Counted from the first letter of the stretch, positions 8,515 through 36,605 are shown. The stretch is DNA of 64,000 bases from Clostridia bacterium (GCA_046952735.1 JBKUJR010000006.1:12977-76976), one strand, 5' to 3'. The notes: generated from the letters alone by a model not told the origin. Numbers and translations: made by a program.

Positions 8515-8553
8515 TTCCGCCTCCCTGGATTTCTCTAAAATTTTACGGATGTT

Positions 8554-9221: not shown

Positions 9222-9231
9222 AATGCTGATC

Positions 9232-14664: not shown

Positions 14665-15290
14665 TTAATGGGACGAAATAGTTATATGTGCTAAGAAAAT
14701 AAATACCGCAGAATTCGATTTTGAATTCTGCGGTATTTCAATCAAAAAACCCCCCGGAATATTTCCTTTAAGAAAATCAGCCTGCGCGATATATGGTGCC
14801 TTCAGGTGGTATCCTTTGTTTTTCAGCATACGAAATTTGAAATCCAGCAATTCAGCCGGAATATACAACTCTTTGGCAACTCCGAAGAAAGACTTTTCGT
14901 TATCATTAAGTAGATCAAGATGTTCGTTATCATCGATCAAAAGCTCGGCAGCAAACAGATTGGCTTCATATTCGGTACGGGACGTCATATCGAACATTTC
15001 AAGCTCCTGAAATCCGCGCATGGCAGCGAGTTCTCCGTGGAGCAAGGCGTGACCGAGTTCGTGGGCACATAAAATTTTTTGCACAATTCTGCGGATCGGA
15101 TATTCAATACGATGTTTTTGATCCTGGATTGATAAAAATAGTAAGCCTTTATCGCTGTGCCTAAATCCTTGTATCGGATACGGACATTCAGATCATCGCA
15201 CAGTTCAAAAGGATTTCTTGTGTCATATTTTCGGATCAGTGCATCGATTTTCTCGGAAATCATATCAGTATATATAGTCAATGTAAACAC
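14665..15290 (-). pseudogene. ImmA/IrrE family metallopeptidase, frameshifted
   Basis: HEXXH motif (AHELGHALLH) in the 3' ORF. The 5' ORF carries the upstream ImmA-like region (...KAYYFYQSRIKNIVLNIRSAE). The frames switch at an A4T6 homopolymer (15071-15080). Confidence 0.65.
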
Positions 15291-15323
15291 CTTTAATGTA
15301 TGTTGATTCGGAAAAGCATATTA

Positions 15324-15785
15324 CTATTTTGATCTTTTTTTTCGCGCCCGTTTTGGTGAGAACTTGGCGCGGGCTTCTTCCTTGGATTCAAGGTAAACTT
15401 CCATTAGAGACTGAAAGAAGAGATTCTTTGCAGAATCATCAAGTTCACCGCCGGCAAAAAGGGCAGAAGCTCGGGATAGAATATCGGTCGCCTCTTTTGC
15501 ACCTTTGTATCCGTATTCATTTTTTGCGTTGGCGATGAAAATATCATGATTGATATCTTTTGTCGTGTCAGTTTCTTCTTCATCTAAGAGATATCCCACG
15601 GATACCTGAAGAGCTTCAGCCAGTTTACGTATATTGCCGCTGCGCGGCAGAACACCAGTTTGTTCATAGGTGTATAAAGAACGCTCGGAAATACCGGTCA
15701 GTTCCGCAACCTCACTTTGAGACAGATTCAGTGCAAGTCTTGCATTTTTCAGTTTTTCACCAAATGTTATAAAAATGTACCTCAC
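15324..15785 (-). CDS. XRE-family HTH transcriptional regulator (ImmR-like)
   Basis: HTH_XRE motif LNLSQSEVAELTGISERSLYTYE. Paired with the ImmA-like gene. Confidence 0.8.
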   Translation of the reverse strand: MRYIFITFGEKLKNARLALNLSQSEVAELTGISERSLYTYEQTGVLPRSGNIRKLAEALQVSVGYLLDEEETDTTKDINHDIFIANAKNEYGYKGAKEATDILSRASALFAGGELDDSAKNLFFQSLMEVYLESKEEARAKFSPKRARKKRSK

Positions 15786-16316: not shown

Positions 16317-16596
16317 ATTTAACCTGTAGTATAAGCGTGGAAGAGGGTCATAGAATGCAGGGAACAGCCGAGAAACGAAGTGAAATTATGAAAATCCTGT
16401 GCCGGCGCAGGAGCGAAACTGTTCGAAATTTGTCTTTTGAAATCGATGTTTCCGAACTACCATCCGACGGGATATTGAGATTCTGAGTCTTACAGAGCCG
16501 ATATACACCCAATCCGGAAGATACGGCGGCTGAAGATTGAGTTTCTGCCGGAGCTTGAAAAGAACGGATCAGGCAAGATTAAGAAAGGAGGCAATT

Positions 16597-17208
16597 ATGC
16601 TTGAATTTGAAAAGAAAGTAATGCTTGCAAAAGCAGAATATGAATTTTTAAGAGAACTTTGGCAAAACCATACAGTTACAGCGGTGCAAAATAATCATTA
16701 TTATGATACGGATGATTCTGAACTGTGCAGACAGGGGATTACCTGCCGTATTCGTGAAAAAGACGGACGCTGTACGGCAACGATCAAGGAACATCAAACA
16801 AAGTGGCAGGACTGCAACGTAGAAAATTCACGATCTGTAAGCAATAGATACGATGACGCTCTATTTCGGGATATGGGGATTTACTGTCAGGGCAGTCTTG
16901 AAACGCTTCGCAGTACATATCTCCCTTGCATCGGAGTTTCTCTGATGTTAGATCGAAACAACTATCTCGGCGTAGAGGATTTTGAAATGGAAATTGAATA
17001 TGACCGTGATCATGAGGCTGAGGCTGATGCTGAACGATTGCTTACAGGCATTGTTTTTGATCTTACGGAGCATGGGATTTTACAGAAACCGGCTGCATTC
17101 TGGCTGTGTGCCAGTTACGGGAAGAATAAGGCGGCGCGATTTTTCAGCCGAAAAGAAGAAATCTTGCGTCGAACAGGAGGTGGAAGTCATGAAATCTATA
17201 CTGAATGA
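16597..17208 (+). CDS. CYTH-domain protein (triphosphate tunnel metalloenzyme / class IV adenylate cyclase-like)
   Basis: EFEKKVML (resembling the EIERKFLV start), NHYYDTDDSELCRQGITCRIRE (YfDt...lRiR motif), and acidic DFEMEIEYD. RBS AAGAAAGGAGG. Confidence 0.6.
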   Translation: MLEFEKKVMLAKAEYEFLRELWQNHTVTAVQNNHYYDTDDSELCRQGITCRIREKDGRCTATIKEHQTKWQDCNVENSRSVSNRYDDALFRDMGIYCQGSLETLRSTYLPCIGVSLMLDRNNYLGVEDFEMEIEYDRDHEAEADAERLLTGIVFDLTEHGILQKPAAFWLCASYGKNKAARFFSRKEEILRRTGGGSHEIYTE

Positions 17209-18313
17209 AATCGTTAAGCTTAGAGGCGAACAGATGCCTGTCATTGATTATCATAACAGCAACCGTTATTGTGTAATTGCCGCAGAAAAGGATGGAAGCA
17301 AAACATCATACTGTTTTGGTATTCCGGTTTATAACCGAAAAACGAGAAGAATTATCGATTTGTTATTTCATGAAACCGAAGGCAAGTGGAAAGCAGACGG
17401 CTCAACTGCCGTAATAACTGCCGGAAATGAAATTTATTTAGAAAACCCAGACGGCTTTTCTAAAGTTGCTTTGCCTGAAAGGATTTCAGCAGGAGCAGAA
17501 CGTTGTTTGCGATACGGTATGGCGGAGATTCGACCTACGCTTAACGGCGTCTGTGTTCGGGCGGTCTGTACGGCAGATCAGACGTATGAAATTGACCTAA
17601 TAACCGGTCAACCATTTATGAACGTGCGTGCCAATGACCGATGCTTTTCCCTGATGCAGGAGGAACACAGACCGTTTATGACGGTATCCTGCATCGGCGT
17701 CTTGAACGATTTTGGTCAGATAATCGCACCGTGCATTTTTGAATATCAAAGATATCGCGATAATGCGTACACATTAATTTTTCGACAAAGCAGCCCATAC
17801 GGCAGCACTCTTCTGTTTGAAATCAATTTATATGAGGAAAAACTGTTTCAGGACACTACTGTGGAAAGCCTGCATCCCGATCTGAATAATGCATTCGGAG
17901 GTACGGCGTTTATAGGAAACACTGCTGCATACGGTGAACAATGGCTTTATTCACGTCCTGATTTTGCAAAGCTGCCGGAATTGTACGATAAACAGATACG
18001 AAAGGCAATCTTTCATTTACCGAGATTCGGTGGTAACTGTACTTTCTCCGCCTTTGGGCTTTCTGCTCGTTTTTGCAGCTTCGGTTCCAATTGGGATAAC
18101 AAAATTGAAGCGGCAGAAGAACAGGCAATCGCATATACCGACGGTGCATATCAGAGCTTGGATATTACCAGCCTGATTACCGATAATGCCGGATTTTTGA
18201 AGCATACCGAAGGGCTGATCCTCCGTCCGAAGAAGAAAAACGGTGGGTTTGCCGCAGTATCTACCGGGGACAGTTATTTTGCTCCGCAGATTTTGGAAGT
18301 GAATTTTCGCTGA
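17189..18313 (+). CDS. hypothetical protein (374 aa, beta-rich, no recognisable motif), translationally coupled to the CYTH gene
   Basis: Start ATG 17189 overlaps the CYTH stop (17208) and is preceded by AGGAGGTGGAAG. Long uninterrupted ORF. Confidence 0.6.
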   Translation: MKSILNEIVKLRGEQMPVIDYHNSNRYCVIAAEKDGSKTSYCFGIPVYNRKTRRIIDLLFHETEGKWKADGSTAVITAGNEIYLENPDGFSKVALPERISAGAERCLRYGMAEIRPTLNGVCVRAVCTADQTYEIDLITGQPFMNVRANDRCFSLMQEEHRPFMTVSCIGVLNDFGQIIAPCIFEYQRYRDNAYTLIFRQSSPYGSTLLFEINLYEEKLFQDTTVESLHPDLNNAFGGTAFIGNTAAYGEQWLYSRPDFAKLPELYDKQIRKAIFHLPRFGGNCTFSAFGLSARFCSFGSNWDNKIEAAEEQAIAYTDGAYQSLDITSLITDNAGFLKHTEGLILRPKKKNGGFAAVSTGDSYFAPQILEVNFR

Positions 18314-18464: not shown

Positions 18465-21400
18465 ATGGAAAACAAAAACTATTTTGCGGGTGAAATGACA
18501 AATGCCATTGAGCAGGATATCGTTCTTGCCCCCGATTCTGTGGAGAAGGAATCAGAACCGGAAATCAAGGATTCTGCGATTTCCCTCAACACAGAGGATA
18601 TTGCATCCGAGGATGTAATATCAAAAGAGATGGAAGCCTCGTTTGAGGTGGAAGAGACGCCTGTAAAAGCAGTGCGTGTCAATGAGATTCCCGAGCTTCG
18701 CGGAGAAAACAGCAAGGTGTTCCGCATGAGCGACGGAACCGAGCAGGCTGTATTCTATGTCGAGCCGATTCATGTGTTGAATGATGAAACGCAGTGCTTT
18801 GAAGCGGCAGATACCGAGCTCACAGAAAAGGACAACGCATTTGTCAGCGGAAAGACCCGTTTTACAGCGGAATTTTCTAAGGACGAATCAAATGACGAGT
18901 TGTTCCATATTACAGACGGCTCACACCGTGTTACCGTTCTTGTGGCAAAGATCGGTAGGCAGAAACAGGATACTGTTGCAGCACTTAAAAAGGTGACAGC
19001 TGATGAAACTGCGGCGGCTGTTGATCAGATCGCAGACAAAGTTACCTTTGCAAAGGTTGAAGCAGACGCAGACATTACCTATTCTTTGACCGCAAGCGGC
19101 GTAAAGGAAGATATTGTTGTCAGAGAAAAAGCTGACGTCTACCGTTATTCTTTCCTGCTTCGCATGGAGAATGTTGCGCCTGAATTTGACGAAGAGGAAA
19201 GGCGTATTGCTTTCATGGATCTCGAAAACGGCGAAGAGGTATTTCATATTCCCGCCCCCTTTATGACAGATGCAGACGGCAATCTTTCTTCTTGTGTCTC
19301 GTATGATGTGAAAGAACTTGACAGCGGCGAAATGCTTCTGACCGTAACTGCAGACAGCGAGTGGCTCAATGCAGAAGAGAGAGTATTTCCCGTAGTGATC
19401 GATCCGCAGATTAAGGTAAGCGGTACTAGCGCTATGACTACCTACAGTTGGGTGGGCGGAAGGATGTCTTCAGCTTCTACGCACACGATCGGTACAAACG
19501 GCTCCGGCGACGGGAACTGCAATGCTAACCGTATGTATATGAAGTTGACTATGCCGACGCTTTCGCTCAATCCCCGCATTAAGAAGGCGGAACTGAAATT
19601 CTATCAGTCTTCCGGTTCTACGCAGTGCGGCGGTTGCCCGAAGCTTGGACTGTATCAGGTAACGGACAGTATTGTAACGGGAACATGTACGCCTGTGGCA
19701 AGTTCGGATCTCATCGATTATGATACCATGAAGACAGGGCACTGTGAGGACGGCGAGGTAATCTCGTACACCTTTGATATTACCAAGCTGCTTGACGCAG
19801 TAAATAAAGGAGAAACTTCCTATGCCAATCTTGTACTGAAGATGCTTGATGAAACCTCATCCTGCAATGATAAGATCGTGCTGTACGGTAGTTCGTACGG
19901 TGGGACTTATGCACCTCAGCTTGTGGTGACATACGAATCCAGCTATGGAGTCAATACTTCCTACCGTACGCATACCCATGAACTGGGACGCTTCGGTCAG
20001 GGCAGTATCGATCTTGCCTGCGGCAATCTGATGTTTGAGTCGGAGGATTTTGCATGGGCAAGCAACAAAATGCCTGTGATCTTGAAGCATCTGTACAATA
20101 GTGCGCTTGCTTCTTATCAGTACACGGCGAACAGTACCATCAAGCTGAATACTGCAAATTTCAGCGCCATGAAGCTCGGCTGCGGTTTCAGACTGAATGT
20201 GATGCAGAGTATGGTATCTGCTTCCTTCCAGCATGAAGGTACGGCTTATACCGGATATGTATACATCGGTGAAAACGGCGAGGAGACCTACTTCAAAAAG
20301 AGCAGCAAGACTTGTACTTGCAGCAGCAATACCCAGTGCTACAATCTCTACGAGGATGTAAACGGCGGCGATATGCTGTATGATCCCGAAAAGAGAACGC
20401 TGACAAGCGGTGAGGACATCTATGCATTCGATACTTCCGGCAGACTGCTCAAAGTAACCTCCGGCAAGAACAGCATAGTTATTACCTATACCTCAGGCAG
20501 AATCTCATCTGTGACTGACGGTGCAGGACGCATATTCGGTTTTGCATATAATGCAAGTGGGTTCCTTACCTCTGTTACCGCACCTGACGGTACGAATATT
20601 CTCTATACCTATTCTGGAAATCTTCTCAGCACGGTAACTTATCCTAACGGCAAGAAGGTGACTATCAGTTACTCTTCGAATAAGCCGACTCAGATCGTAC
20701 TTTTAGAAGATGGCACGAATGTTTACAAGGTATCCTATACTTATTCCGGCAACCGCGTTGCGAGCGTGACCGAGTATGGCTATGAAAACGGCACGGCTGT
20801 GAAAGGCGCATCGACTGCATACTCTTACTCTGCAGCCTCCCGCAGAACGATTGCGACAACGACCGAGCAGAAGGAGGACGGCGAGAGCGCAAATAATGTA
20901 ATTAAAACCGTCTATACTTTCGATGATGACGGGAATATTGTCAGCGAATATGTGTATTCGCAGGATATAGGAAATATCGGTGCAGACGGCGAGGAAAGCG
21001 GAATCAATCCTCACTCCGGCGATGGTGGTGCGGGCGTTGTTAGCAACATCAACAACCTGCTTGTAAACCACAGCTTTGAAACGCTTGATAACTGGACAAG
21101 TATGCCCTGTAACTGCGGAAGCTTCTTCATCAGCAATTACAACAACGATTCCTACGCTAAGTTCGGCGGCAAAACCTGTTGGATGAGAAATCACGGACAG
21201 GAGCGTGGTATTAACGGTATCTACCAGGTAACAAATGTGCTGCCTGCCGGCAACTACACCTTTTCTGCGTATGCACGAATTGACGGTGCATTCAGCGGAT
21301 GCGAAGATTCCGGTGTGTTTATTCGCGTGACAGATACTTCGGACAATATTCTTGTGGAAAGTGAACGCCTTGTTTCCTACGATACCGAATATATCCGTCT

Positions 21401-24400
21401 GATTGCTCCTTTTGTATTGACCTCTGCAAAGAGTGTCAAGGTACAGATCCTGATTAACGGAAACGGTTCTGTGGATATTGACGCGGCACAGTTGGAAAAC
21501 AACGCTTTTGCCAATGCATACAATATGCTTGAAAACGGTAACTTTGAGCGTGGAACCAACAGCTGGAGCAAAACTGCAGGTGTATCCTATTCGACTAGCA
21601 CACGCTTTAATATGAGCAAATCTCTGTATATGTCCGGCAACCTTACTTCTTCCAGATATGCTTATCAGAAGGTGACGGTTAAGACAAGCCGTTCCACCCG
21701 TGAGACCTTTACACTGTCCGGTTGGGCTAAAGGTTACGGCATTGTGAACCGTGAGCGTGACTTTGCACAGGCTCCGCAGTTCAGGCTGCGTGCAGTAGTG
21801 AAGTATTACGATACAGCCTACAGGGAGTACGGTACTGAAACCTATACCGCCGATTTCTCACCTTGTACCGAGGAATGGCAGCTTGCATCCGTGCAGTTTG
21901 CAAAGGAAAAGTTCCGTACTATTCGGGATATTACCGTATATTGCGATTACAGCTATAACGTCGGCAGCGTATACTTTGATGATATCCAGCTTGTGCGTAA
22001 CAGCATTGAAACCAATCTCTCTGCAAGTGACTTCACGGTGGAAAGCACCGGAGGCACCGATTCTGACGAGACTGTGGAAGACGGAAAGAATACTGCTTCC
22101 GATACAACGCCTGATTTTCAGGAAGCAACAGATGCATTTGGAAATGCTCTGACCGAAACCACTTTTACTGACGGCGAATTCGGTACGATCTACCGTTCTT
22201 TCGGTTTCAATGCTGATAACGGTCAGCTTGCAGGAAATGATGCGGGTAATAACCTGATTCGTGAAACTGATGCAAGAGGAAACGATACCGAATATGCAGT
22301 TGACAGCGTAACCTCTCGCAACGAGGAAGTGATCGACAGATGTGGCAACAAGACTGCCTACGAGTATGACGCATACGGCAGAACTACAAAGGTAACAAGC
22401 TTTAAAGCTCGTCGTGATGAAAACAATAATCCGATCAGAGATAACAACTGTGAGATCGTCTATGATGCGATGGCCGATGTGTCTTACACTTACGACAGCT
22501 TTGACAATATGACCGAGATTGCTCGCGGCGACGGAATGAAGTATGCCCTTGCGTACAATGCTTTCCATAATCTTGAGTCGATCGGTGTAGACGGCAAAGA
22601 TGATAAGCTCGTCAAGTACGACTACAAGAATGGCAACGGCAGACTGAAATCCATCACTTATGCCAACGGTCATGTGATGAAGGCAACATACAATTCGATC
22701 GGTCAGATGGTTGCTGAAAAATGGTTTGCTAATGCATCCGCAACAACAGCCATTGCACACTACAAATATGTTTATGACGGTCAGGGCAACATCGTCCGCT
22801 CCATTGACATTTTACAGAAAAAAGAGTATACTTATTCTTACGAAGACGGCAGAATTATCCGTGCTACAGAGAGTGCAATTAAACTTGATGCAAACGAGAG
22901 CGTTATCGGTAAGACACTTCTTAATTCAATCCTGTATACCTATGATTACGAAGGCAAGCTGACTAAAAAGCGAATCATCCCGGCAAACGGCAGTGAGCGA
23001 GTCATCTACTATGAGAATATGGACGACAATACAGTTGTCAAGTTCACCGCAGGCGGAAAGACAGTAACCTCTCACAGCAAGACTGACAGCTTCGGCAGAA
23101 AGGTCTTCGATGAGCTTCAGCTTGGCACGGGATTTGTGTCAAGGCAGTTCCATTACCATGAGGGCGCGGTTACGCAGGAACACACGGATGCAGGGAAACT
23201 GAAATCCACTGCAACTACTCAGCTTGTGAGCCAGATTGTGCTTTCCGGCGGTCGTACAATTTCTTATGAGTACGATGCGGAAGAACGCATTACCAAGGTA
23301 ACCGACAGCATGGACGGTACAACCCTATACACTTATGATGCGCTTGGGCAGTTGCTTACAGAAACGCACAATGGCGAGCCTGTCAACACTATGGTGTATG
23401 ACAATTACGGTAACATTGTCAGCAAGAACGGCAAGGCGTACACCTACGACAGCACGTGGAAAGATCTGCTTACATCCTACGACGGGCAGTCCATTACCTA
23501 CGATGCACAGGGCAACCCGACAAGCTATCTCGGTCATACGTTGGAATGGGAAAAAGGGCGTCAGCTTAAGAACTTTGACAACAACACATATACCTACAAT
23601 GCAAATGGCATCCGTACATCTAAGACCGTAAACGATGTTAAGCACGAATATGTTCTTGACGGAAGCAAGATTCTTAAAGAGGTATGGAATGAGAATACAC
23701 TTATTCCAATGTACGATAATGAGGAAAGTGTTTGCGGTATCATCTTCAAAAATATACCGTACTATTTCCAGAAAAATCTGCAGGGGGACATTATTGCTAT
23801 CGCAGATAAGAATGCGAAGGTTGTTGCAAAATACTCCTATGATGCTTGGGGCGTTTGTACGGTAATAAGCGATATTTCCGAAACCAATATCGCGGCCGTT
23901 AACCCATACAGATACAGAGGATATTACTATGACTCCGAGATAGGTATGTATTATCTACAATCTAGATATTTCAATCCTATAGTTGGAAGATTTGTTAATG
24001 TGGATGAAACATGCTTTATTCCGTCTGACTTTTCGTTATCTACAAACTTGTGGACTTATTGCTTAAATAATGCAACAAACTATACTGACTCGAAAGGTTT
24101 CTTTGGGACACCGATCCAATGGGCATGTGCTATTATTGGAGGAGTCGCCGGGTGGTTCTTTGGAGATTATGTTGCACGAGGAATCGGACTGTTTCCTGGA
24201 AAATGGTGGCAATGGCAAACCGCTGCTTATTGGGCTGTAAGAGGTTTGGTTGTTGTTGGCGGTGCTGTTTTAGGATATGTTGCTGGAACAGTACTTCTTA
24301 AATTGGCCACCAAGTATTTGCTAATGAATTCATGGGTCGCCTCTCGCATGCCTAAAATCTTGTTGTGGTTTTTGGGTATGGGCGGCGCAGCAGGACAGGT

Positions 24401-24683
24401 TGCAAATGATATGTTTTCAAGATATGCCGGGCATATATTTTCTAATGATCATATTAGAAATGGGATTATGAGGCTAGGGACATCACAAAGAGATATATTC
24501 AATAAGATTTTTAACATAATTAGTTCTAAAATTGGTCAGGCTCAAAACGGAAGTAATCAAATATATGCGACTATCAAGGGAATTAAGGTAACCATTAGGT
24601 TTTACTTCCAAGATGGACAATTTAGAAGTATTAATGCCTTTATTGGATGGGCTAAAGATGTTATAGGAAAACTGTTGAAATAA
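18465..24683 (+). CDS. RHS/YD-repeat polymorphic toxin (2072 aa) with a C-terminal glycine-zipper-rich toxin domain
   Basis: Many YD repeats (YTYDALGQLLTE, YDNYGNIVS, YTYNANGIRTSKT). RHS-associated core PYRYRGYYYDSEIGMYYLQSRYFNPIVGRFVNVDE...NLWTYCLNNATNYTDSKGF. The CT region that follows has GxxxG-rich hydrophobic segments. Confidence 0.9.
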   Translation: MENKNYFAGEMTNAIEQDIVLAPDSVEKESEPEIKDSAISLNTEDIASEDVISKEMEASFEVEETPVKAVRVNEIPELRGENSKVFRMSDGTEQAVFYVEPIHVLNDETQCFEAADTELTEKDNAFVSGKTRFTAEFSKDESNDELFHITDGSHRVTVLVAKIGRQKQDTVAALKKVTADETAAAVDQIADKVTFAKVEADADITYSLTASGVKEDIVVREKADVYRYSFLLRMENVAPEFDEEERRIAFMDLENGEEVFHIPAPFMTDADGNLSSCVSYDVKELDSGEMLLTVTADSEWLNAEERVFPVVIDPQIKVSGTSAMTTYSWVGGRMSSASTHTIGTNGSGDGNCNANRMYMKLTMPTLSLNPRIKKAELKFYQSSGSTQCGGCPKLGLYQVTDSIVTGTCTPVASSDLIDYDTMKTGHCEDGEVISYTFDITKLLDAVNKGETSYANLVLKMLDETSSCNDKIVLYGSSYGGTYAPQLVVTYESSYGVNTSYRTHTHELGRFGQGSIDLACGNLMFESEDFAWASNKMPVILKHLYNSALASYQYTANSTIKLNTANFSAMKLGCGFRLNVMQSMVSASFQHEGTAYTGYVYIGENGEETYFKKSSKTCTCSSNTQCYNLYEDVNGGDMLYDPEKRTLTSGEDIYAFDTSGRLLKVTSGKNSIVITYTSGRISSVTDGAGRIFGFAYNASGFLTSVTAPDGTNILYTYSGNLLSTVTYPNGKKVTISYSSNKPTQIVLLEDGTNVYKVSYTYSGNRVASVTEYGYENGTAVKGASTAYSYSAASRRTIATTTEQKEDGESANNVIKTVYTFDDDGNIVSEYVYSQDIGNIGADGEESGINPHSGDGGAGVVSNINNLLVNHSFETLDNWTSMPCNCGSFFISNYNNDSYAKFGGKTCWMRNHGQERGINGIYQVTNVLPAGNYTFSAYARIDGAFSGCEDSGVFIRVTDTSDNILVESERLVSYDTEYIRLIAPFVLTSAKSVKVQILINGNGSVDIDAAQLENNAFANAYNMLENGNFERGTNSWSKTAGVSYSTSTRFNMSKSLYMSGNLTSSRYAYQKVTVKTSRSTRETFTLSGWAKGYGIVNRERDFAQAPQFRLRAVVKYYDTAYREYGTETYTADFSPCTEEWQLASVQFAKEKFRTIRDITVYCDYSYNVGSVYFDDIQLVRNSIETNLSASDFTVESTGGTDSDETVEDGKNTASDTTPDFQEATDAFGNALTETTFTDGEFGTIYRSFGFNADNGQLAGNDAGNNLIRETDARGNDTEYAVDSVTSRNEEVIDRCGNKTAYEYDAYGRTTKVTSFKARRDENNNPIRDNNCEIVYDAMADVSYTYDSFDNMTEIARGDGMKYALAYNAFHNLESIGVDGKDDKLVKYDYKNGNGRLKSITYANGHVMKATYNSIGQMVAEKWFANASATTAIAHYKYVYDGQGNIVRSIDILQKKEYTYSYEDGRIIRATESAIKLDANESVIGKTLLNSILYTYDYEGKLTKKRIIPANGSERVIYYENMDDNTVVKFTAGGKTVTSHSKTDSFGRKVFDELQLGTGFVSRQFHYHEGAVTQEHTDAGKLKSTATTQLVSQIVLSGGRTISYEYDAEERITKVTDSMDGTTLYTYDALGQLLTETHNGEPVNTMVYDNYGNIVSKNGKAYTYDSTWKDLLTSYDGQSITYDAQGNPTSYLGHTLEWEKGRQLKNFDNNTYTYNANGIRTSKTVNDVKHEYVLDGSKILKEVWNENTLIPMYDNEESVCGIIFKNIPYYFQKNLQGDIIAIADKNAKVVAKYSYDAWGVCTVISDISETNIAAVNPYRYRGYYYDSEIGMYYLQSRYFNPIVGRFVNVDETCFIPSDFSLSTNLWTYCLNNATNYTDSKGFFGTPIQWACAIIGGVAGWFFGDYVARGIGLFPGKWWQWQTAAYWAVRGLVVVGGAVLGYVAGTVLLKLATKYLLMNSWVASRMPKILLWFLGMGGAAGQVANDMFSRYAGHIFSNDHIRNGIMRLGTSQRDIFNKIFNIISSKIGQAQNGSNQIYATIKGIKVTIRFYFQDGQFRSINAFIGWAKDVIGKLLK

Positions 24684-24688
24684 TTATT

Positions 24689-25387
24689 TTGGACATCTAT
24701 AATGGCTACAATAAATTTGTAGCCATTATAGAACCGTATAGGAGGAGAAAAATGTTTCCGTTATCACAATTTGAACTTATTGAAGAATATGATGGTGAAA
24801 AGATACTTTACGAATATCAAAAAGATTTGATATTCGATATCGAATATGAGCCACACAAAATAATTAATTTAGCTTTATTGCAAACTTTGGGTACCATAGG
24901 TAGATATGATGTTGCTATAGAAGTATTAAAATATGGCATTGAAGTCACATCAGATATTCGGGCTTGTGTAATTGGTTTTTATCTTTCTGTAATGTGGAAC
25001 GGGGATTTATCCTGCTTTGAACCCAAACTGGAAGATTCTTACTTTGTGGCCAGCAAAGAGTATCAATCTATTACAAATCTTTTATTTGCAATGAAATATC
25101 GAAATCAACATAATTTTCCTTTGACGAAGAGATATTTGGAAAAATCGATTTTATTGTGCGACCAATATGTTAATAATCATCTCATGTACGCATTTTATTG
25201 TTCTAAAAATGATAGAAAAAAACATTTGGACAGCGCAAGAAACAATCTTGATTATCCTCAACAGAACAAGGAAGATTACACTTCTTTAGAGAAGATCACG
25301 GATCCAGATAATTATATTGGTGAATTTATTACAGGTAACATGATGTGTATAGACACATTTGAGTCAATTGTAAATACAATAAAGTAA
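24689..25387 (+). CDS. putative cognate immunity protein of the RHS toxin
   Basis: Starts 6 nt after the RHS stop. Low-GC, helical 232-aa protein. A paralog (27455-28057) follows the orphan CT. Confidence 0.6.
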   Translation: MDIYNGYNKFVAIIEPYRRRKMFPLSQFELIEEYDGEKILYEYQKDLIFDIEYEPHKIINLALLQTLGTIGRYDVAIEVLKYGIEVTSDIRACVIGFYLSVMWNGDLSCFEPKLEDSYFVASKEYQSITNLLFAMKYRNQHNFPLTKRYLEKSILLCDQYVNNHLMYAFYCSKNDRKKHLDSARNNLDYPQQNKEDYTSLEKITDPDNYIGEFITGNMMCIDTFESIVNTIK

Positions 25388-25438
25388 AATAAACACTTGA
25401 TTATCAAAGTTGTAATGGCAGCTTCTCTATAGTGTTAT

Positions 25439-25480
25439 CCCCCTTTCAGGTTTTGACTTGAAAAGGGGGAGGCTTTTTTC
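25439..25480 (+). terminator. rho-independent terminator after the immunity gene
   Basis: Stem CCCCCTTT...AAAGGGGG followed by GGCTTTTTTC. Confidence 0.5.
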
Positions 25481-25485
25481 ACTAT

Positions 25486-27419
25486 AAGTATGTCTATGAC
25501 GGTTAGGGCAACATCGTCCACTCTATTGACATTTTGCAGAAAAAAGAGTATACTTATACTTATTCTTACAAATTCTTACAAAGACGGCAGAATTATCCGT
25601 GCTGCGGAGACCGATATTACGATTGACGCAAACGAGACCATCACCGGCAAAACGCTTGTTAATTCCATTGTCTACAGCTATGACTCCGACGGCAAGCTGA
25701 CAAAGAAGCGGATTATTCCTGCAAGTGGCAGCGAGCAGGTCATCTACTACGAGAACAGTGACAACAATACCGTTGTGAAGTTCAACGTAGGTGGAAAAAC
25801 GGTAACTTCTCACAGTAAGACTGATAGTTTCGGAAGAAAAGTCTTTGATGAATTACAGCTCGGCACAGGCTTTGTGTCGAGACAGTTCCATTACCATTCA
25901 GGTGAGGTTATGGGTGAGAATAAGGAAAATGCAAAACTGAAATCTTCCCCAACTACGCAGCTCGTGAGCCAGATCGTGCTTTCCGGCGGTTGTACAATTT
26001 CTTATGAGTATGATGCGGAAGAGCGCATTACCAAGGTAACCGACAGCGTGGACGGCATCACCGAATACACATACGATGCACTTGGTCAGTTGTTGACCGA
26101 GAAGCACAATGGCGAAACTGTCAACACGATGGTATATGACAACTACGGTAACATCGTCAGCAAGAACGGCAAGGCGTACACCTATGACAGCACGTGGAAA
26201 GACCTGCTTGTATCCTACGGGCAGTCTATTGCTTACGATGCGCAGGGCAACCCGGCATCTTACCTTGGACATACGCTCACTTGTGAAAAGGGGCGTCAGC
26301 TTAAATCCTTTGACGGTATCCAGTACACCTACAATGCAAATGGTGTCAGAACAAGCAAGACAGTAAACGGAGTTAAACACACTTATACGCTCGACGGTTC
26401 AAAGATTCTTCGTGAGGTATGGGAAAACAACACTTTGATTCCGTTGTACGATAACGAGGATAGCGTATGCGGCATCATCTATAACAACGACCCCTTCTAC
26501 TTCCAGAAGAACCTGCAGGGTGATGTTATCGGTATCGTTGACAAGGATGCTGAGGTTGTTGCGAAATACTCCTATGATGCGTGGGGTGTATGTACTATAA
26601 CAAACGATACTTCGAGCGTTGGTATTGCTACAGTAAACCCGTATCGTTATAGGGGATATTACTATGACTCCGAGATTGATATGTATTATTTGCAGAGCAG
26701 GTATTACAATCCTACCGTCGGTAGATTTATAAGTGAGGATGAAACATGCTTTATTCCGTCTGATTTTTCATTATCTACAAACTTGTAGACTTATTGCTTA
26801 AATAATGCAACAAATTATACTGACTCGAAAGGTTTCTTTGGAACACCGATTCAATGGGCATGTGCTATTATTGGAGGAGTCGCCGGATGGTTCTTTGGAG
26901 ATTATGTTGCGCGAGGAATCGGACTGTTTCCTGGAAAATGGTGGCAATGGCAAAACGCTGCTTATTGGGCTGTAAGAGGCTTGGTTGTTGTCGGGGGGTG
27001 CTGTTTTAGGGTATGTTGCTGGAACAGTACTTCTTAAATTGGCCACCAAGTATTTGCTAATGAATTCATGGGTCGCTTCTCGCATGCCTAAAATCTTGTT
27101 GTGGTTTTTGGGCATGGGCGGTGCATCAGGACAGGTTGCAAATAATCTATATGCAAATTACGAAAGTCATATTTTTTCCAGACAACATATTGCCGATGGA
27201 ATAATGAGATTAGGCTCATCACAAAGGGATATATTTAATAAAATATTCAATGTGCTGAGTTCGAAAATTCAATATGTTGTTAACGGTTCCAATCAAACAC
27301 ATACAACAATAAAAGGGATTAAAGTGACTATTCGATTTTATTTTATGGATGGTCAAATAAAGAGTCTTGATGCTTTTATTGGTTGGGCAGGACGAATTAT
27401 CGGTAAATTGCTGAAGTAA
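25486..27419 (+). pseudogene. orphan RHS C-terminal cassette (duplicate of main RHS 22775-24683 region plus a diverged CT), inactivated
   Basis: About 80% nucleotide identity to the main gene. In-frame stop TAG at 26786-26788 where the main gene has TGG (24051-24053). A +1 G insertion in the G6 run at 26993-26998. Messy 5' junction with a short duplication. Confidence 0.8.
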
Positions 27420-27454
27420 TGAATGTTCTCTATGGTCAAGGTTAATTTGACCGC

Positions 27455-28057
27455 TTGGAGGTTGTTATGATGGATTTAAATATGTTCAATCTAATTCAGA
27501 AATCTGAAAATGCAGAAATGTATATGTATCAGCAAAAATTAATAAATAAAATTGATGACAGAAATGGCGAGAATGCAATTAAATTGGCATTACTTTTAAC
27601 ACTTGCTCCGATAGGAGATTATACAGAAGCATTAAAGATTTTATTGTTTTTTTCTGAACTTTTTTCAAATGTAAAATTAGAAATTATAAAGTATTATTTT
27701 TTGTTACAATGGGGAACGGGCATTGATCTTGAACAAATAAAGGTGTTACTCTCGACGAAAAATTATGACAGTGAAACAGAATCACTATTTTACTATTTGA
27801 TGGCTTTGCAATTAGAGCGATTCGGAAATAAAAAAGAAGCGGCAGAAAAAATTGCATTGTCAGTAGAGAAATGTTCTGATCATGTAAATAATATCTTAAT
27901 GTATGTTAAATATTTCAAAAAAGAAGAAGCTTTATATTTGCGGAAAGCAAAAAGTAATTTGAAAATTATTGATTGCTTGGGTGTGGATTCATATGTTAAT
28001 CCAAATATGTTTATAGGAGAACATATTAGCGGAATATATAAATTGAAAATTGATTAA
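27455..28057 (+). CDS. orphan immunity protein (paralog of 24689-25387)
   Basis: Shared motifs: LALLLTLAPIGDY vs LALLQTLGTIGRY; CSDHVNNILMYVKYF vs CDQYVNNHLMYAFYC; FIGEHISG vs YIGEFITG. Confidence 0.6.
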   Translation: MEVVMMDLNMFNLIQKSENAEMYMYQQKLINKIDDRNGENAIKLALLLTLAPIGDYTEALKILLFFSELFSNVKLEIIKYYFLLQWGTGIDLEQIKVLLSTKNYDSETESLFYYLMALQLERFGNKKEAAEKIALSVEKCSDHVNNILMYVKYFKKEEALYLRKAKSNLKIIDCLGVDSYVNPNMFIGEHISGIYKLKID

Positions 28058-28067
28058 TCAGATCAAA

Positions 28068-28415
28068 GAATGGCAAGGCATATACCTATGACAGCACATG
28101 ACGTGATCTTCTTACTTCATATGACAGTCAGTCCATTACTTACGATGCACAGGGCAATCCGACAAGCTATCTCGGTTATACTCTGACATGGGAAAAAGGA
28201 AGACAGCTTAAGTCCTTTGACGGCATCACCTATACTTACAACGCAAACGGTATCCGTACATCCAAAACGGTTGGTGGTGTTAAGCACGAATATGTTCTTG
28301 ACGGAAGCAAGATTCTCAAAGAAGCTTGGGACGGTAATACCCTCGTTCCTCTGTACGATAACGAGGATAGCGTATGTGGTATCATCTACAATAACGAACC
28401 GTACTATTTCCAAAG
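28068..28415 (+). pseudogene. third RHS fragment (homologous to main RHS about 23440-23770), truncated at the junction with the intron remnant
   Basis: Translates to ...TYDAQGNPTSYLGYTLTWEKGRQLKSFDGITYTYNANGIRTSKTV...DNEDSVCGIIYNNEPYYFQ. Homology ends abruptly at 28413-28415. Confidence 0.7.
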
Positions 28416-28520
28416 TAAAGCTTGCCGCAAGAAGTCAGCAGAAGCCATAGTACCTGATTATTCAGGGAAGGGCTGAACAATCGTAAGTTTCGAGTAAAGG
28501 CCGGAAGGAGGTCTGGAGCG

Positions 28521-29668
28521 ATGAAAGCAGAAAACCGAAAGGGCTGCCCGCAAAGGGAAAGCGTGGAACGCGAAGAGTATGCGGGAGTGCAAAGCACCAG
28601 ACGTCGGGAAGGCGTGGAAAGGAACGGTGTGTCAGACCTGCTGGAAAGGATTCTGGACAGAAACAATCTGAACAGAGCCTACAAGCGGGTCAAATGCAAT
28701 CACGGAGCGCCAGGAATGCAATCGCACAGCAGCTAAGGCAAATCTATGAACTGATCTTTTCAGACGGCAGCTATGGTTATCGTCCGGGGAGAAGTGCACA
28801 GCAGGCTATTCAAAAGGGGAAGGAGTATGCACAGCAAGGGTATACCCATGCTGTGTCAGTAGACTTGCCCAAATATTTCGATACCCTCAATCATGAACTG
28901 CTAATGAATCTTATGCGCAAAGAAATCTAAGACAAGCGAGTCATAGACTTGATTAAGAAGTATCTCAAAAGCGGCGTCATGGAAAATGGCCTTGTCATCA
29001 GGACACAAGAAGGAGCGCCGCAAGGCGGGCCGTTATCACCGTTACTGACGAATATCTACCTGAACGAATTTGACAGGGAAATGGAACGCCGTGGCGTTCG
29101 GTTTATCCGGTATGCGGATGATATTGTTGTGCTGGCAAAGAGCAAGCGAGCTGCCGGACGATTGCTGGAATCATGCCGAAGATACCTCGAGGGGAAATTG
29201 AAACTCAAAGTCAACACTGAAAAGAGTAAAGCAGTCAGCGTTCTGGCTATTAGCACTTCAAATTTCTTGGCTTTTGTTTGGGTAAGAATGGCAGCGGTAT
29301 CCTATATCCGCGCACATAGGAAATCCTTGGCAAAAGCCAAGCGAAAGCTCAAAAAGCTGACTCGCCGCAACCAGGGCTGCAATGTCCGCAAAGTCATGGA
29401 AAACGTTAAAATCTTTATCCGTGGCTGGATTGACTGCTTCTATGTGGCTGATATGAAGCGAATACTGCAAAGCTGGAACGAATGGCTGCGAAGAAGATTC
29501 AGCATGTACATCTGGAAACAATGGAAGAAGCCTAAAACCCGCATTCAAAACCTGTGCATACTGGGGATTTCACACTTACAGGCTTACCAGTGGGGCAATT
29601 CCAGATTGGGTTACTGGCGCGTTGCCGGCAGTCAAATCTTAGCGTGTTCCATTATCGATGTTATTTAA
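28521..29668 (+). mobile_element. group II intron remnant: RT/maturase (IEP) split across three frames, 5' ribozyme domains missing
   Basis: RT domain 0 LLERILDRNNLNRAYKRVKCNHGAPG; RT domains in 28694-28930; YADD motif (RFIRYADDIVVLA); maturase/X domain (IRGWIDCFYVAD...). Only about 100 bp separate the RHS fragment from the IEP start, and no GUGYG 5' end is present. Confidence 0.75.
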
Positions 29669-30146
29669 GTGGCCATGGTGTTTGGAAGTGTTCATTTGAT
29701 TGTTATATGATTTGTATTGAAGACGCAGTCAAAATTGAAAAGTCATTTATTGAAAAATGCTTTACTCATATAAAAATTTTAATTTTTATAGCCAGGAAAT
29801 TCAATTAAAGGAAACAAACGAAGTAATTGGACGAATTCGCGGTCGGGATCCTGACGATAGTGTAAGTCAAGTAGAAATTGTTTAAATTTCTCAAAATGCA
29901 GCTTTTCTCTATACTATGAAACAAAATTTTGCCCTTCAAGCTATGATTTGAACAGGAAATTTTTTTATTATGTGTTTTAACGACTGAAAATTAAAAAGTA
30001 CCACATAATTTTCTGTATTTTTAACAAAGCTATAATAAATTTATGCTGCATCTTTTTCAAAATAAAGCCAAGTGACACAGTAATAGTTACAATTCACGTC
30101 CGATAAAATCTGACGGTTTATATAAAGTAACATTAACGAAAAAATA

Positions 30147-30174
30147 TTGACAATAAATAAAAAAGTGGTAAAAT
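30147..30174 (+). promoter_or_regulatory. strong sigma-70-type promoter upstream of the cas operon: -35 TTGACA (30147-30152), extended -10 TGgTAAAAT (30166-30174)
   Basis: Near-consensus hexamers with a 16-nt spacer in an AT-rich (about 27% GC) 600-bp leader. Confidence 0.45.
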
Positions 30175-30281
30175 TTAAATAAATAATTTATAAGGAAAAT
30201 TCATAATATTGAATTTAATCTATAAATCCGGCAAGAATATTATTTTTTATAATAACAAAGAAACGAAAGGAGGAGAGTATT

Positions 30282-30950
30282 TTGGTAAAGCCATATCCCC
30301 TTGAGATGGAGATATCAGGCAACACAGCGATGTGGACACGACCGGATACGGGCGATTGTCCGGTGAGTTATCCAGCCCCCACGTATTCTGCAGTCAAAGC
30401 GATATTCGAGTCTGTTTTGTGGGGGCCGGATATAGAGATTATCCCGACTAAAGTGGAATTGTGCAAACCCGTGCAATATCATACCTATTGTACAAATTAC
30501 GGTGGGCCGCTGCGGAGCACATCTGCAATCAAACAAGGAAATAGTTATCAGCTATACGCCACGGTGTTGATCGATGTCTGCTACAAGCTATACGCGCAAG
30601 TTGTGCCAAATCACAACAAAAAAGACCAGCCACCCACGGCTTTACAATGGGACATGAAAACCACTTCTCCCGGACACGCTTACCAAAGCATTTTTCAGCG
30701 TCGTTTGAAACGCGGCCAGTCTTTTTCTACGATTTCGCTTGGCTGGAGTGAGTTTACCCCCAACTACTTTGGCGAGCTTCGTGATACGACAAAGCTGCTG
30801 GATAATTTGCCTGATATCATCATCCCCTCCATGCTTAGACAAGTATTTTCTAAAGGCTATAACTCTCCGGTTTCCTACACCTATGACAATAATTTAGTGA
30901 TACAGAATGGGACGCTGGAATATCCAAAACGAGGCGTAGATTATGATTAA
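30282..30950 (+). CDS. cas5: Cas5 (type I-C Cas5c/Cas5d-like)
   Basis: 222 aa. YPAPTYSAVKAIFESVLWGPDIEIIPTKVELCKPVQY matches the Cas5d pattern Y.vPTpSAvrGileAI.WkP.i...v.rI.vl.PI, and QLYATVLIDVCYKLYAQV matches RATLALRDVAYVIEAHF. TTG start with AAAGGAGGAG RBS. Confidence 0.7.
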   Translation: MVKPYPLEMEISGNTAMWTRPDTGDCPVSYPAPTYSAVKAIFESVLWGPDIEIIPTKVELCKPVQYHTYCTNYGGPLRSTSAIKQGNSYQLYATVLIDVCYKLYAQVVPNHNKKDQPPTALQWDMKTTSPGHAYQSIFQRRLKRGQSFSTISLGWSEFTPNYFGELRDTTKLLDNLPDIIIPSMLRQVFSKGYNSPVSYTYDNNLVIQNGTLEYPKRGVDYD

Positions 30951-33027
30951 TGAACTGCACGATTTGGCAAAAACACTGGAAAACAAGGGAATCTCACCAA
31001 AAGAGTGGCATAGGGAATATAAAGCAATTCCGAAGGTTACAGAAAAATCTCCTTGTATTAGAATCTGGCTTGACTGCGATGGCGCAATTTGCGGGCTGGA
31101 GGGCCTGTCCGCGGAGCAGGCAAGCCAATTACGAAAATACGGGAACAACCAGAATAGTTTTCCAGCATTCAATATTAGCCCGCTATACCGGCTGACTGAT
31201 TTGGACAGTATTGATGAACTTAAAAGAATCGAAAACGGACAAGGCAAACCTGATATAGAAACAATTAAGTCATGGTGCAAAGAAAACAACTGGATTAAAG
31301 GAGCTCCGAAGCAAATACAAAGAAATTTAGAGGATTGTCCTCAAAGACTTTTGGAAACAATCGGGACACAGGCGCAAATGAACGATACTATTATTTTAGA
31401 ATTAGTTTCATTGTGCAAAAAACTCTGTGAAAATATTGACGGCGGATTTCGAGCCTCCCTTGAAAATTGTATTTTTACAAAATTGCAAAAAGGAGAAGAT
31501 GTGAAACTTGCCCTTGCCTTGCTGTTTCATAAAGGCTCCGCCGAGAAGGAACACAGCAAGGATGCGGGAAACAAATTATCTGTTATTCTGGATGTATGGG
31601 AGTGGAGTCGGTATGAATATCCCGTAGCCAATGAATACACTACGCTTCAACTCAATGAAATGTTGTTGGCAAATAGCGCCAATGTAGAGATACTGGCGGA
31701 TAACACCCAGTTGGACGCTTTTGGCTCTCCTTTTGTGAATCCAAACGAACCGATGCCTAGTGTAAAACTCAGTGGATTTGAAGTTACTCTGCGTTCCATG
31801 TTTAACGGCCAGCCGTGTCAGTACCGTTATGGCCAGATTGACGACGGATCCTATCCGATAACGGCAGAAAACCGTTCGTCGATTAAGAAATCGCTGGAGT
31901 GGATAACGCATCCATCGCGCAGACATGTAACCTGGGAGAAGGTTGATAAAAACGAGGTGGCGTTCGTATATCCCTCCAGATTACCTGAGGTGTTCCCGCA
32001 TTTTGCATCTGTTTTTAAGAATGATCCGAGTAAAAGCCCCAAAAGAACAGAGGCCCGGTTTGAAAATGTCGCTAAAGAGTTTGCTAAATCCTTTCGCGGG
32101 CTCCCTGTCGACCAAAAGCCGGATAACCTGCAGATATTTACAATCCGAAAGTTGGATAAGGCGCGTTCAAAGATCCTCTTCACACATAATACAACGCCAG
32201 AACAACTCATCCAAGCGGCAGACGATTGGTCGCTTGGGTGCCATAATATTCCCGAACTGGAGATGGACGAGGGAAACTCCCCGTTTCCTCTTGAGGTAGG
32301 GTCTATTGTAAATGGTGTTTGGAAACAAAACGGCGAACGGGCGGATGGAAAAACATCCGTCAAATGCATGAAATATTATCAGGGTGTAGAGCTGCTTTTG
32401 AACATCCTGCCACAGGGCGCAGTATATAACTTTTTACATATTACACTTGAACATTCATCCGGTTTAATCAATTATCTAGGCAATTTGCTTCACAGAGGCA
32501 GAAAAGACGGGAGCAGCACCGAGATAAAACGCTTAGAAATCCAAAAAAATGCGGCAGCTCAAATTCTTTCGGTTCTTGGACTGCTACTCTATAAAAGCGA
32601 CATAAGAAAGGAGAAGTATATGGAAGGCCTGGCTTATCTGATCGGTCAACTGTTGCATGTGTCCGATGAGCTCCATACGCTGTACTGCAAGATCAAAAGA
32701 AATGGAGATATCCCGCCGCAGCTGGCAGGCAGCGCTCTGTTTACGACTGCTGGCGATATGCCATTTCAGGCATTGTCACAGCTATCGACAAGACTGAATC
32801 CATACATATCATGGGCAAAACAGTATCAATTTAAAGATATCGAGAAACAAGGCGAGGAAAGCTGGCGTGCAAGATGGCTTTTAGGACTTTTGAGACAGCT
32901 ATCCAACGAAATCCATTTGCAAATGGACAAGTCTATTCGTTTTAACGACTACGACAAAGCCCAGCTTTTTATCGGTTATATGGCATCACTGCAGAAAGAA
33001 GGGCAGCTGCTCAAAACAAAATCGTAG
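30943..33027 (+). CDS. cas8c: Cas8c-like large subunit (assigned by position; 694 aa)
   Basis: Start overlaps the cas5 stop (ATGATTAA). Sits between cas5 and cas7 as Cas8c does in type I-C. No sequence motif that I can verify from memory. Confidence 0.5.
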   Translation: MINELHDLAKTLENKGISPKEWHREYKAIPKVTEKSPCIRIWLDCDGAICGLEGLSAEQASQLRKYGNNQNSFPAFNISPLYRLTDLDSIDELKRIENGQGKPDIETIKSWCKENNWIKGAPKQIQRNLEDCPQRLLETIGTQAQMNDTIILELVSLCKKLCENIDGGFRASLENCIFTKLQKGEDVKLALALLFHKGSAEKEHSKDAGNKLSVILDVWEWSRYEYPVANEYTTLQLNEMLLANSANVEILADNTQLDAFGSPFVNPNEPMPSVKLSGFEVTLRSMFNGQPCQYRYGQIDDGSYPITAENRSSIKKSLEWITHPSRRHVTWEKVDKNEVAFVYPSRLPEVFPHFASVFKNDPSKSPKRTEARFENVAKEFAKSFRGLPVDQKPDNLQIFTIRKLDKARSKILFTHNTTPEQLIQAADDWSLGCHNIPELEMDEGNSPFPLEVGSIVNGVWKQNGERADGKTSVKCMKYYQGVELLLNILPQGAVYNFLHITLEHSSGLINYLGNLLHRGRKDGSSTEIKRLEIQKNAAAQILSVLGLLLYKSDIRKEKYMEGLAYLIGQLLHVSDELHTLYCKIKRNGDIPPQLAGSALFTTAGDMPFQALSQLSTRLNPYISWAKQYQFKDIEKQGEESWRARWLLGLLRQLSNEIHLQMDKSIRFNDYDKAQLFIGYMASLQKEGQLLKTKS

Positions 33028-33033
33028 GAGGTA

Positions 33034-36113: not shown

Positions 36114-36188
36114 AGTACGTTTTGGACAGCATTAAGAAAATTTTGATCACTATTTCTCTAAAATGAATTAGCGCCTTTTTCACAACTT

Positions 36189-36470
36189 TTGCAGAGCAGG
36201 TATTACATTTGTCAAAACACCCCAGTCGTGAGGGGGCTATGCGCCGGACGGTATCTATTTTGTCAACGCTTCCTGGAAGATTTTGCTTTGCTGGTTCCAG
36301 CGATGGTAAATGGAGCGTTTGCATGTGAACTATTTCTTAAATCATTATTAAACGTCTCTCTTAGAGGACATAGACTTTATAGTGATTTATTTTGCAAATT
36401 AGAATTGTCTACTGCACAAGAGATTGAAACAGTTGTCATCGAGAGCTTCAAAAGAAAAAAGCATGTTTAG
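36189..36470 (+). CDS. hypothetical small protein (93 aa) downstream of cas3
   Basis: ORF only, between the cas3 stop and the terminator hairpin. Uncertain. Confidence 0.2.
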   Translation: MQSRYYICQNTPVVRGLCAGRYLFCQRFLEDFALLVPAMVNGAFACELFLKSLLNVSLRGHRLYSDLFCKLELSTAQEIETVVIESFKRKKHV

Positions 36471-36507
36471 CGTTTGGCTTCTTTTTTGTAACAGGAACAC
36501 AGTGTAG

Positions 36508-36553
36508 AAACCTGTCGAAAAAGCTGTAATTGCTTTATCGGCAGGTTTTTGTT
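36508..36553 (+). terminator. rho-independent terminator downstream of the cas operon
   Basis: AAACCTGTCGA ... TCGGCAGGTTT stem (1 mismatch) followed by TTTTTGTTG. Confidence 0.45.
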
Positions 36554-36605
36554 GTAATATGATGCAAACGAACAATATTTATATTTGGTAAGGGAAGATT
36601 CGTTA

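Follow-up and report, generated by a model that had tools for sequence, protein, structure and literature searches.

We describe here a polymorphic RHS toxin locus in DNA from a Clostridia bacterium known as a metagenome-assembled genome (MAG). The stretch analyzed, called the window below, is 64,000 nucleotides long (GCA_046952735.1 JBKUJR010000006.1:12977-76976), and positions are counted from its first letter. At this locus a long RHS gene is followed by an immunity gene (imm1), then by a 5′-truncated copy of the 3′ third of the RHS gene (the orphan) with an immunity gene of its own (imm2), and then by a third, short RHS fragment that abuts the remnant of a group II intron. All these features lie on the + strand.

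The main gene occupies 18465..24683 (+) and is a single open reading frame (ORF) for an RHS/YD-repeat protein of 2072 aa. NCBI lists the protein as ‘MAG: RHS repeat-associated core domain-containing protein [Clostridia bacterium]’ (P0045). In profile scans it matches Pfam RHS_repeat in four stretches (1.9e-30) and TIGR01643 (5e-25). The NCBIfam matches are YD_repeat_2x, Rhs_assc_core at aa 1792-1878 (TIGR03696; 57.4 bits vs. a cut-off of 32.5) and DNRLRE_dom at aa 336-489. The protein thus reads, from its N-terminus, as a DNRLRE domain, a YD-repeat shell, the core end, a linker and a toxin domain, Ntox35, at aa ~1976-2072. The core end is NLWTYCLNNATNYTDSKGF, with DSKGF in place of DPxGL, and in an alignment of relatives it falls on the NNPxNxxDxxG consensus of the family. 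In the first ~500 aa (18465-19931), the DNRLRE domain alone was recognized.

The cargo of the main protein is predicted to be an RNase. The Pfam match to Ntox35 (PF15534) covers aa 1990-2059 (24432..24641, +) and scores 41.7 bits against a curated cut-off of 23.6. Ntox35 has been defined as a clade of BECR-fold RNases with two N-terminal histidines (PMC3482391). In the main protein these are His1990 and His1996, in the motif HIFSNDH (aa 1990-1996). In an alignment of 30 sequences of the Ntox35 family (A1), the second histidine (H31) is invariant and the first (H25) nearly so. An AlphaFold2 model of the domain (pLDDT 86.4) has helices followed by four strands, consistent with the alpha+beta BECR fold, and a structure search with it returned fold matches to CdiA-CT tRNases. 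The importance of a histidine is known from a Staphylococcus aureus toxin with an Ntox35 domain, where the His205Ala (H205A) mutant loses antibacterial activity (bioRxiv 10.1101/2025.07.24.666436).

The end of the core (...NYTDSKGF) is joined to the RNase domain by a linker that is hydrophobic and rich in glycine (aa 1886-1904 and 1919-1949; ~24120-24410). It has no significant match to a Pfam or NCBIfam family. In the family alignment the linker and Ntox35 are found together as a unit. A hydrophobic stretch is also seen at the linker position in relatives bearing unrelated toxins (AHH in P0048 and P0050, and the C-terminus of P0049). Possibly the linker serves this RHS family generally as a membrane-translocation element.

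The immunity gene imm1 (24752..25387, +) encodes a protein of 211 aa, predicted to be TPR-like and all-helical, and its most probable start, ATG 24752, stands behind an AGGAGG ribosome-binding site. The initial annotation had read this part of the locus as a 2072-aa RHS gene followed by its immunity gene, and the ORF, its RHS_repeat and Ntox35 matches and imm1 all agree with that reading. A promoter-like sequence, TTGAAA-17-TATAAT (11/12), is present ahead of imm1 at 24675-24703. The gene is followed by a terminator-like hairpin at 25438-25470 with a T6 run at 25474-25479 (+). The fold of 25425-25485 has a free energy of -23.4 kcal/mol (z = -4.0 vs. shuffles).

The orphan (25480..27419, +) begins at the base directly after the hairpin and its T6 run. 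By blastn it matches main 22758-24683 with 79.8% identity over 1948 columns (E = 0). A duplicate of about 1.9 kb and about 80% nucleotide identity had been noted here, with limits that agree with ours to within ~17 nt. The orphan lacks the first ~1430 codons of the RHS gene, and with them any in-frame translation start or export part of its own. Its sole ATG, at 25490, is out of the RHS frame for the first 27 codons and comes into frame only past a 16-nt insertion. The two lesions that had been called earlier are both present in the base-level alignment. One is a TAG at 26786-26788, opposite the main TGG at 24051-24053 (W1863, in the core-end motif NLWTYCLNN). The other is in a G6 run at 26993-26998, where there is one extra G compared with the main GGCGG. 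Further lesions are a CAG to TAG change in the RHS frame at 25504-25506 and the frame-shifting 16-nt insertion itself at 25556-25571, which consists of a 6-nt and a 10-nt tandem duplication. A 3-nt deletion at 26216/26217 keeps the frame. The description of the orphan as inactivated is nevertheless only relative: without the ~1430 codons of the delivery shell it is silent regardless of the lesions.

The toxin domain downstream of these lesions is undamaged. The Ntox35 domain of the orphan (27156..27377, +) scores 45.0 bits against the same Pfam cut-off, carries its two histidines as HIFSRQH (HIFSxxH in both copies) and, like the main domain, keeps every position that is invariant in the 30-sequence alignment. 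NCBI annotates an ORF at 26985-27419 as a ‘polymorphic toxin type 35 domain-containing protein’ (P0004). The C-terminal toxin region (CT) of the orphan had been described as diverged. This holds for the last ~97 codons, those of Ntox35, which are ~70% identical to the main gene, but not for the first ~125 codons after the core, which are 97-100% identical. Judged from its sequence, the orphan toxin is a second allele of Ntox35 (~70% at the aa level), of the same family as the main toxin.

The second immunity gene, imm2 (27467..28057, +), is an intact ORF for a protein of 196 aa with a predicted TPR-like fold. The ORF opens at TTG 27455, the start adopted earlier, but ATG 27467 is the likelier start, having a GGAGG ribosome-binding site 6-7 nt upstream. 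Intactness is borne out by the closest orthologs, P0043 and P0044 (60-64% identical; 199 and 191 aa), against which imm2 is full length. The imm1 and imm2 proteins are 29% identical (E = 2e-18), and neither has a significant match to a Pfam or NCBIfam model.

The third fragment (28066..28412, +) opens 8 nt past the stop codon of imm2. It consists of core only, matching main 23424-23770 without gaps at 81.0% identity over 347 nt (blastn, E = 3e-92), and it holds a stop, TGG to TGA, at 28099-28101. It was therefore rightly taken as a shorter RHS fragment, and the nucleotide alignments leave the homology of both downstream regions with the main gene clear. A tblastn search found no further RHS or immunity fragments in the window. 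At the very base where the RHS homology ends, the group II intron remnant begins (28412..29668, +). Rfam RF01998, a D1-D4 piece, matches at 28412-28473 (46.7 bits), and RVT_1 and GIIM match the ORF at 28949-29668. The reverse transcriptase/maturase reading frame is split by one or more stops and frame changes. No 5′ domains were found, nor any match to domain V/VI at E <= 1. Since the D1-D4 piece lies only ~50 nt before the start of the reverse transcriptase and domain V/VI has no match, the intron is short at both ends. By its sequence, which falls short of a complete ribozyme, it is a non-functional remnant, and its junction with fragment 3 looks more like a deletion scar than a fresh insertion.

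The divergence between the main gene and the orphan is not uniform. A tract of 406 nt, covering the core end and the hydrophobic linker (main 24002..24407, +; orphan 26737..27143, +), is 95.6% identical between the two copies, with 17 substitutions, one indel and sharp edges. Both TAG 26786-26788 and the extra G at 26993-26998 lie within it. We compared synonymous (dS) and non-synonymous (dN) divergence between the main gene and the orphan after repair of its frame. In the RHS core dS is 1.05 and dN/dS is 0.13, and in the Ntox35 domain dS is saturated and dN is 0.24, whereas in the tract (codons 1851-1975) dS is only 0.18, from 14 synonymous changes and one non-synonymous change. Fragment 3 resembles the orphan core in this respect (dS 0.97 and dN/dS 0.11 vs. 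the main gene). Codon-level constraint as the cause of the low dS of the tract is ruled out by a comparison over the same tract with an outgroup contig (L007), which gives a dS of ~1.65. The likeness of the tract in the two copies is therefore due to recent exchange between main gene and orphan, or to import of the same segment into both. The same numbers bear on the age of the lesions: nearly all of the divergence of the orphan and of fragment 3 arose under protein-level selection, so the lesions are young.

Past the frameshift, the main gene and the orphan are still identical base for base over 65 nt (27012-27076) and 35 nt (27078-27112). As the 406-nt tract was recently exchanged, the two copies appear still to recombine, and the lesions sit within the tract that takes part. 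Because the orphan RNase domain keeps every invariant residue, one crossover could rescue the orphan toxin.

The main protein belongs to a large family. It has 279 database matches at E <= 1e-50, mostly of ~2000 aa, which share the body of the protein and differ in the CT. The relatives align over ~91% of the query (all but the CT), also carry PF25023 (TEN_YD-shell), and have other toxins such as AHH (PF14412) at their C-termini. One related contig (L002) has an RHS gene of 2013 aa followed by six orphan/immunity pairs, one of them with Ntox35; its orphans are all called as intact ORFs. In another case, that of P0049 and P0050 (the latter encoded on contig L011), the two proteins share 99-100% identity in aa 1-1400 and 92-95% in aa 1400-1800, and their CTs are unrelated. 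The CT has clearly been replaced here between strains that are nearly identical, and a recombination tract falls within the final third of the core.

A homolog of the ~200-aa immunity gene follows every Ntox35 CT that we examined: twice in the window and also in L002, L007 and L008. For this reason imm1 is taken to be the cognate immunity gene of the main toxin. The pairs also appear to co-vary. The orphan RNase is nearer to that of L007 than the main RNase is (dN 0.11 vs. 0.26), and the L007 immunity protein is likewise 61% identical to imm2 vs. 28% to imm1. Such sequence co-variation supports cognate pairing and suggests specificity of immunity. A profile search placed the two proteins in an Ntox35-linked immunity family of ~140 clusters at 50% identity (P0165-P0302), nearly all of 190-230 aa. 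On contig L006 an imm2-like gene (64% identical) lies amid other small genes and has no toxin fragment upstream; it may be an immunity islet.

The simplest account of these observations is that the locus is a polymorphic RHS toxin locus of main/orphan architecture, which retains the remnants of 3′ ends downstream of the main gene. We give this reading a probability of about 0.8. New CT/immunity modules would be added by recombination, and the older 3′ ends would stay downstream, each starting right after the preceding module. The first remnant bears a second allele of the same toxin family along with its own immunity gene, and at least four breaks now interrupt its frame. The substitution pattern suggests that the orphan was under purifying selection until recently. 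A crossover in the ~130 nt between the frameshift and the end of the tract would join the orphan RNase allele to an intact rhs gene and leave imm2 just downstream of it. With its ORF unbroken, imm2 could in the meantime protect against neighbors that deploy the orphan allele.

The imm2 gene may be expressed, but how it would be transcribed is less evident than for imm1. A sigma-70-like sequence, TTGACA-17-TATACT (11/12), occurs inside the RHS coding sequence and is kept in both copies (main 22804-22832, orphan 25526-25554). In the orphan it sits ~45 nt past the 5′ boundary, a position from which the orphan region and imm2 could be transcribed.

Several observations weigh against the interpretation above. 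The orphan stretch equivalent to the one ahead of imm1 has no promoter-like site before imm2 in our scan, and ~7/12 at best by eye. The two frame-breaking lesions within the tract rest on a single MAG assembly, and the only other sequence over the G run (contig L005, discussed below) shows G5, which is in frame. No same-species strain with an alternative arrangement at the locus was found among genome contigs, JGI metagenomes and GTDB representatives. Finally, no signal peptide, known secretion domain, targeting by a type VI or type VII secretion system (T6SS/T7SS) or LXG/PAAR-type domain was detected on the RHS protein or its closest relatives (P0046-P0050).

How far can the lesions be trusted? 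The NCBI proteins of the locus (P0045 and P0004) come from one 79.5-kb contig of ‘MAG: Clostridia bacterium,’ and it is conceivable that TAG 26786-26788, the extra G, or both are sequencing or assembly errors or variants of a minority strain, the orphan then being an unbroken silent CT cassette. Besides the MAG source, the extra G falls in the sole G/C homopolymer of at least 6 among the genes checked, the orphans of L002 are all called as intact, and the 14:1 ratio of synonymous to non-synonymous changes means that any real lesion must be very young. Independent contigs help only in part. Two Logan contigs from other Sequence Read Archive (SRA) runs agree with the window at 100% identity: L004 over 24573-25520 (the end of the main CT, imm1, the terminator and TAG 25504-25506), and L001 over 27208-28235 (the end of the orphan CT, imm2 and the TGA of fragment 3). 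They reproduce the stops at 25504-25506 and 28099-28101, which are the only lesions found again in independent contigs. Both end short of the other two sites, and no independent assembly confirmed either of these. Exact-protein look-ups with the main protein, the ORF at 25490-26788 and P0004 gave no match, and a 44-mer that spans the TAG site and has R at the lesion had no match in JGI metagenomes or GTDB representative genomes. The contig with G5 (L005; Logan SRR24775677, 2027 nt) carries high-GC proteobacterial lptB/rpoN in its nucleotides 1-1023, and its nucleotides 1024-2006 match window 26924-27906 at 98.8% identity, with five indels in 986 nt. It is probably a noisy or chimeric assembly with no true genomic junction, and was set aside as evidence on the G run, either way. 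TGG to TAG, on the other hand, is a substitution, and mis-mapped reads from the main copy cannot have produced it because the main copy has G there. The assembly does not seem generally error-prone, since the 6.2-kb main ORF and the other long ORFs are unbroken despite many homopolymers (A/T runs of at least 5). Frame-breaking changes are all confined to the orphan, fragment 3 and the intron remnant. We therefore regard artifacts as unlikely and both lesions as quite probably real, the extra G being the weaker of the two. Even if both were errors, the missing ~1430 codons and the 5′ stop mean that there would be no second intact RHS gene. Reassignment or recoding of TAG was also considered and is ruled out, as TAG ends 5 of the 40 long ORFs in the window.

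The direction in which the modules moved deserves separate consideration. The initial annotation saw here the displacement of a toxin with retention of its immunity gene. The part of this claim that stands is an orphan with its own toxin allele and imm2, and relatives in which arrays and CT swaps occur; the displacement as such is less secure, being indistinguishable from acquisition of a cassette. The orphans could have been acquired horizontally and inserted downstream of imm1, the main CT being the older one. In their core parts, the orphan and fragment 3 differ from the main gene by ~20% of nucleotides (dS ~1), as would fit another lineage, and the architecture is identical under both models. 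Nothing decisive speaks against such an origin, although the orphan core and fragment 3 are closer than the main 3′ third to 30 of 34 relatives. These differences amount to 1-3 percentage points, so the direction of displacement stays undecided, with the main 3′ third marginally favored as the newcomer. We hold acquisition of the orphans to be possible, at somewhat less than even odds. A quite different proposal, which rests on analogy with silent pilS-type cassettes, is that the orphan is a deliberately silent donor, that is, a device for switching toxin alleles. Gene conversion would then hold the 406-nt tract near-identical as a landing pad for recombination, the stop and the frameshift would be tolerated or even favored for preventing leaky expression of the RNase from within the orphan, and a crossover downstream of the lesions would switch the cell to the second Ntox35 allele and imm2. 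We consider this improbable. Least convincing is the possibility that a TTG serves as start for the ORF at 26985-27419 (half of the linker and the full Ntox35 domain), whose product would form with imm2 an intracellular pair of the toxin-antitoxin kind. The NCBI pipeline does call the gene (P0004), its toxin domain is intact, AAGAGG is seen by eye 5-8 nt ahead of two TTG codons (26985 and 26988), the promoter-like sequence at 25526-25554 is available, and there is precedent in a Salmonella rhs orphan (PMC7043789). But the start codon would be TTG, the main gene has the identical Shine-Dalgarno-like string as ordinary coding sequence, a promoter close by was not found, and the ORF owes its existence to a frameshift that may have arisen very recently or be an artifact. 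Expression of this kind thus seems very doubtful. Retention of older 3′ ends in a main/orphan locus remains our preferred reading.

This architecture is not new. A close counterpart is known in Salmonella Typhimurium LT2, where the locus consists of a full-length rhs gene, its immunity gene and, after these, a 5′-truncated orphan that shares a stretch of the core and brings a CT and an immunity gene of its own (Koskiniemi et al., 2014, PMC3967940). There, recombination (fusion) between the main gene and the orphan, which deploys the orphan toxin, has been observed experimentally (PMC3967940), whereas here it is suggested by the mosaic tract. Unlike the Salmonella locus, the present one belongs to a Gram-positive-type Clostridia MAG with no T6SS, PAAR or VgrG context, its orphan and main toxins are alleles of the same family (Ntox35), and the orphan frame is interrupted by stops and frameshifts. 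The serial 3′-end remnants downstream of the main gene, each with its own tip and ORF, also recall the ‘C-terminal displacement’ described for enterobacterial rhs genes (Jackson et al., 2009, PMC2935791), although the lineage and the RHS family are different here, with proteins of ~2000 aa, a DNRLRE domain and no signal peptide. A third parallel is provided by the orphan cdiA-CT/cdiI arrays of contact-dependent growth inhibition (CDI) systems, in which toxin fragments lack initiation signals and immunity genes keep a start codon and a Shine-Dalgarno sequence (Poole et al., 2011, PMC3150448). The CdiA/CdiB two-partner secretion, the VENN motif and the Gram-negative host are features of CDI and set those systems apart. 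As to the toxin itself, S8-BetaH-Ntox35 of S. aureus shares with ours the Ntox35 domain and its two histidines at a spacing of six residues, and there too the immunity gene comes directly after the toxin gene (bioRxiv 10.1101/2025.07.24.666436). The S. aureus toxin has a Sec signal and a BetaH fusion, is activated by an S8 peptidase and is diffusible, whereas the domain here is carried by an RHS shell as cargo, with a hydrophobic linker in front of it. These differences from the known main/orphan systems are of degree, and with its architecture already described, the locus is in that sense ordinary.

Among Gram-positive bacteria, WapA of Bacillus subtilis, reportedly the subject of a 2013 PNAS paper by Koskiniemi et al., is said to be an RHS-repeat protein with a polymorphic C-terminal toxin of the RNase type and a downstream immunity gene. 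WapA bears a signal peptide and cell-wall-binding repeats. The RHS protein here resembles it by description, but neither this protein nor its relatives have a signal peptide or cell-wall-binding repeats.

The value of the locus is accordingly modest, and the current understanding of polymorphic toxin systems is unchanged by it. Nonetheless, it documents the main/orphan architecture of RHS genes, best studied in Enterobacteria, in a large and uncharacterized family whose RHS proteins, of ~2000 aa, come from Clostridia MAGs. Its two Ntox35 alleles (~70% identical), with immunity proteins that are only 29% identical, are a natural pair suited to studies of toxin/immunity specificity. The low-dS tract of 406 nt is a clean sequence signature of DNA exchange between main gene and orphan. 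The uncurated TPR-like immunity family (~140 clusters at 50% identity) is also brought to light.

Some features lie outside the toxin modules proper. Downstream, past the intron remnant, is an operon of cas5(d)-cas8-cas7-cas3 at 30282-36113, whose matches are of the type I-C/I-G kind and all below curated cut-offs. There is no cas1, cas2, cas4 or repeat array within ~1.6 kb on either side of the operon, and a search for a CRISPR array or repeats at 28400-30400 and 36000-38000 found none. The stretch 36113-37737 is without a long ORF.

Just upstream of the RHS gene is a conserved gene for a 374-aa protein (17189..18313, +), with AGGAGG before its ATG at 17189. The protein has a weakly DNRLRE-like C-terminus (NCBIfam DNRLRE_dom 2.8e-05, below the cut-off), no significant Pfam or NCBIfam match and no signal peptide. 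Proteins of this type, 59-63% identical, are encoded directly upstream of the RHS gene in L010 (region 452-1579) and L011 (region 8160-9858). Both in the window (16537-18313 region) and in L011, the 374-aa gene is preceded by one with a CYTH domain. A role of the 374-aa protein as an accessory factor of the RHS family is possible. Further upstream lie a gene for an AAA_14/DUF4143 ATPase (12637-13935, +) and a pair encoding an HTH_3 regulator and an IrrE/M78-type peptidase (14665-15785, −), genes of kinds that are typical of mobile or defence islands.

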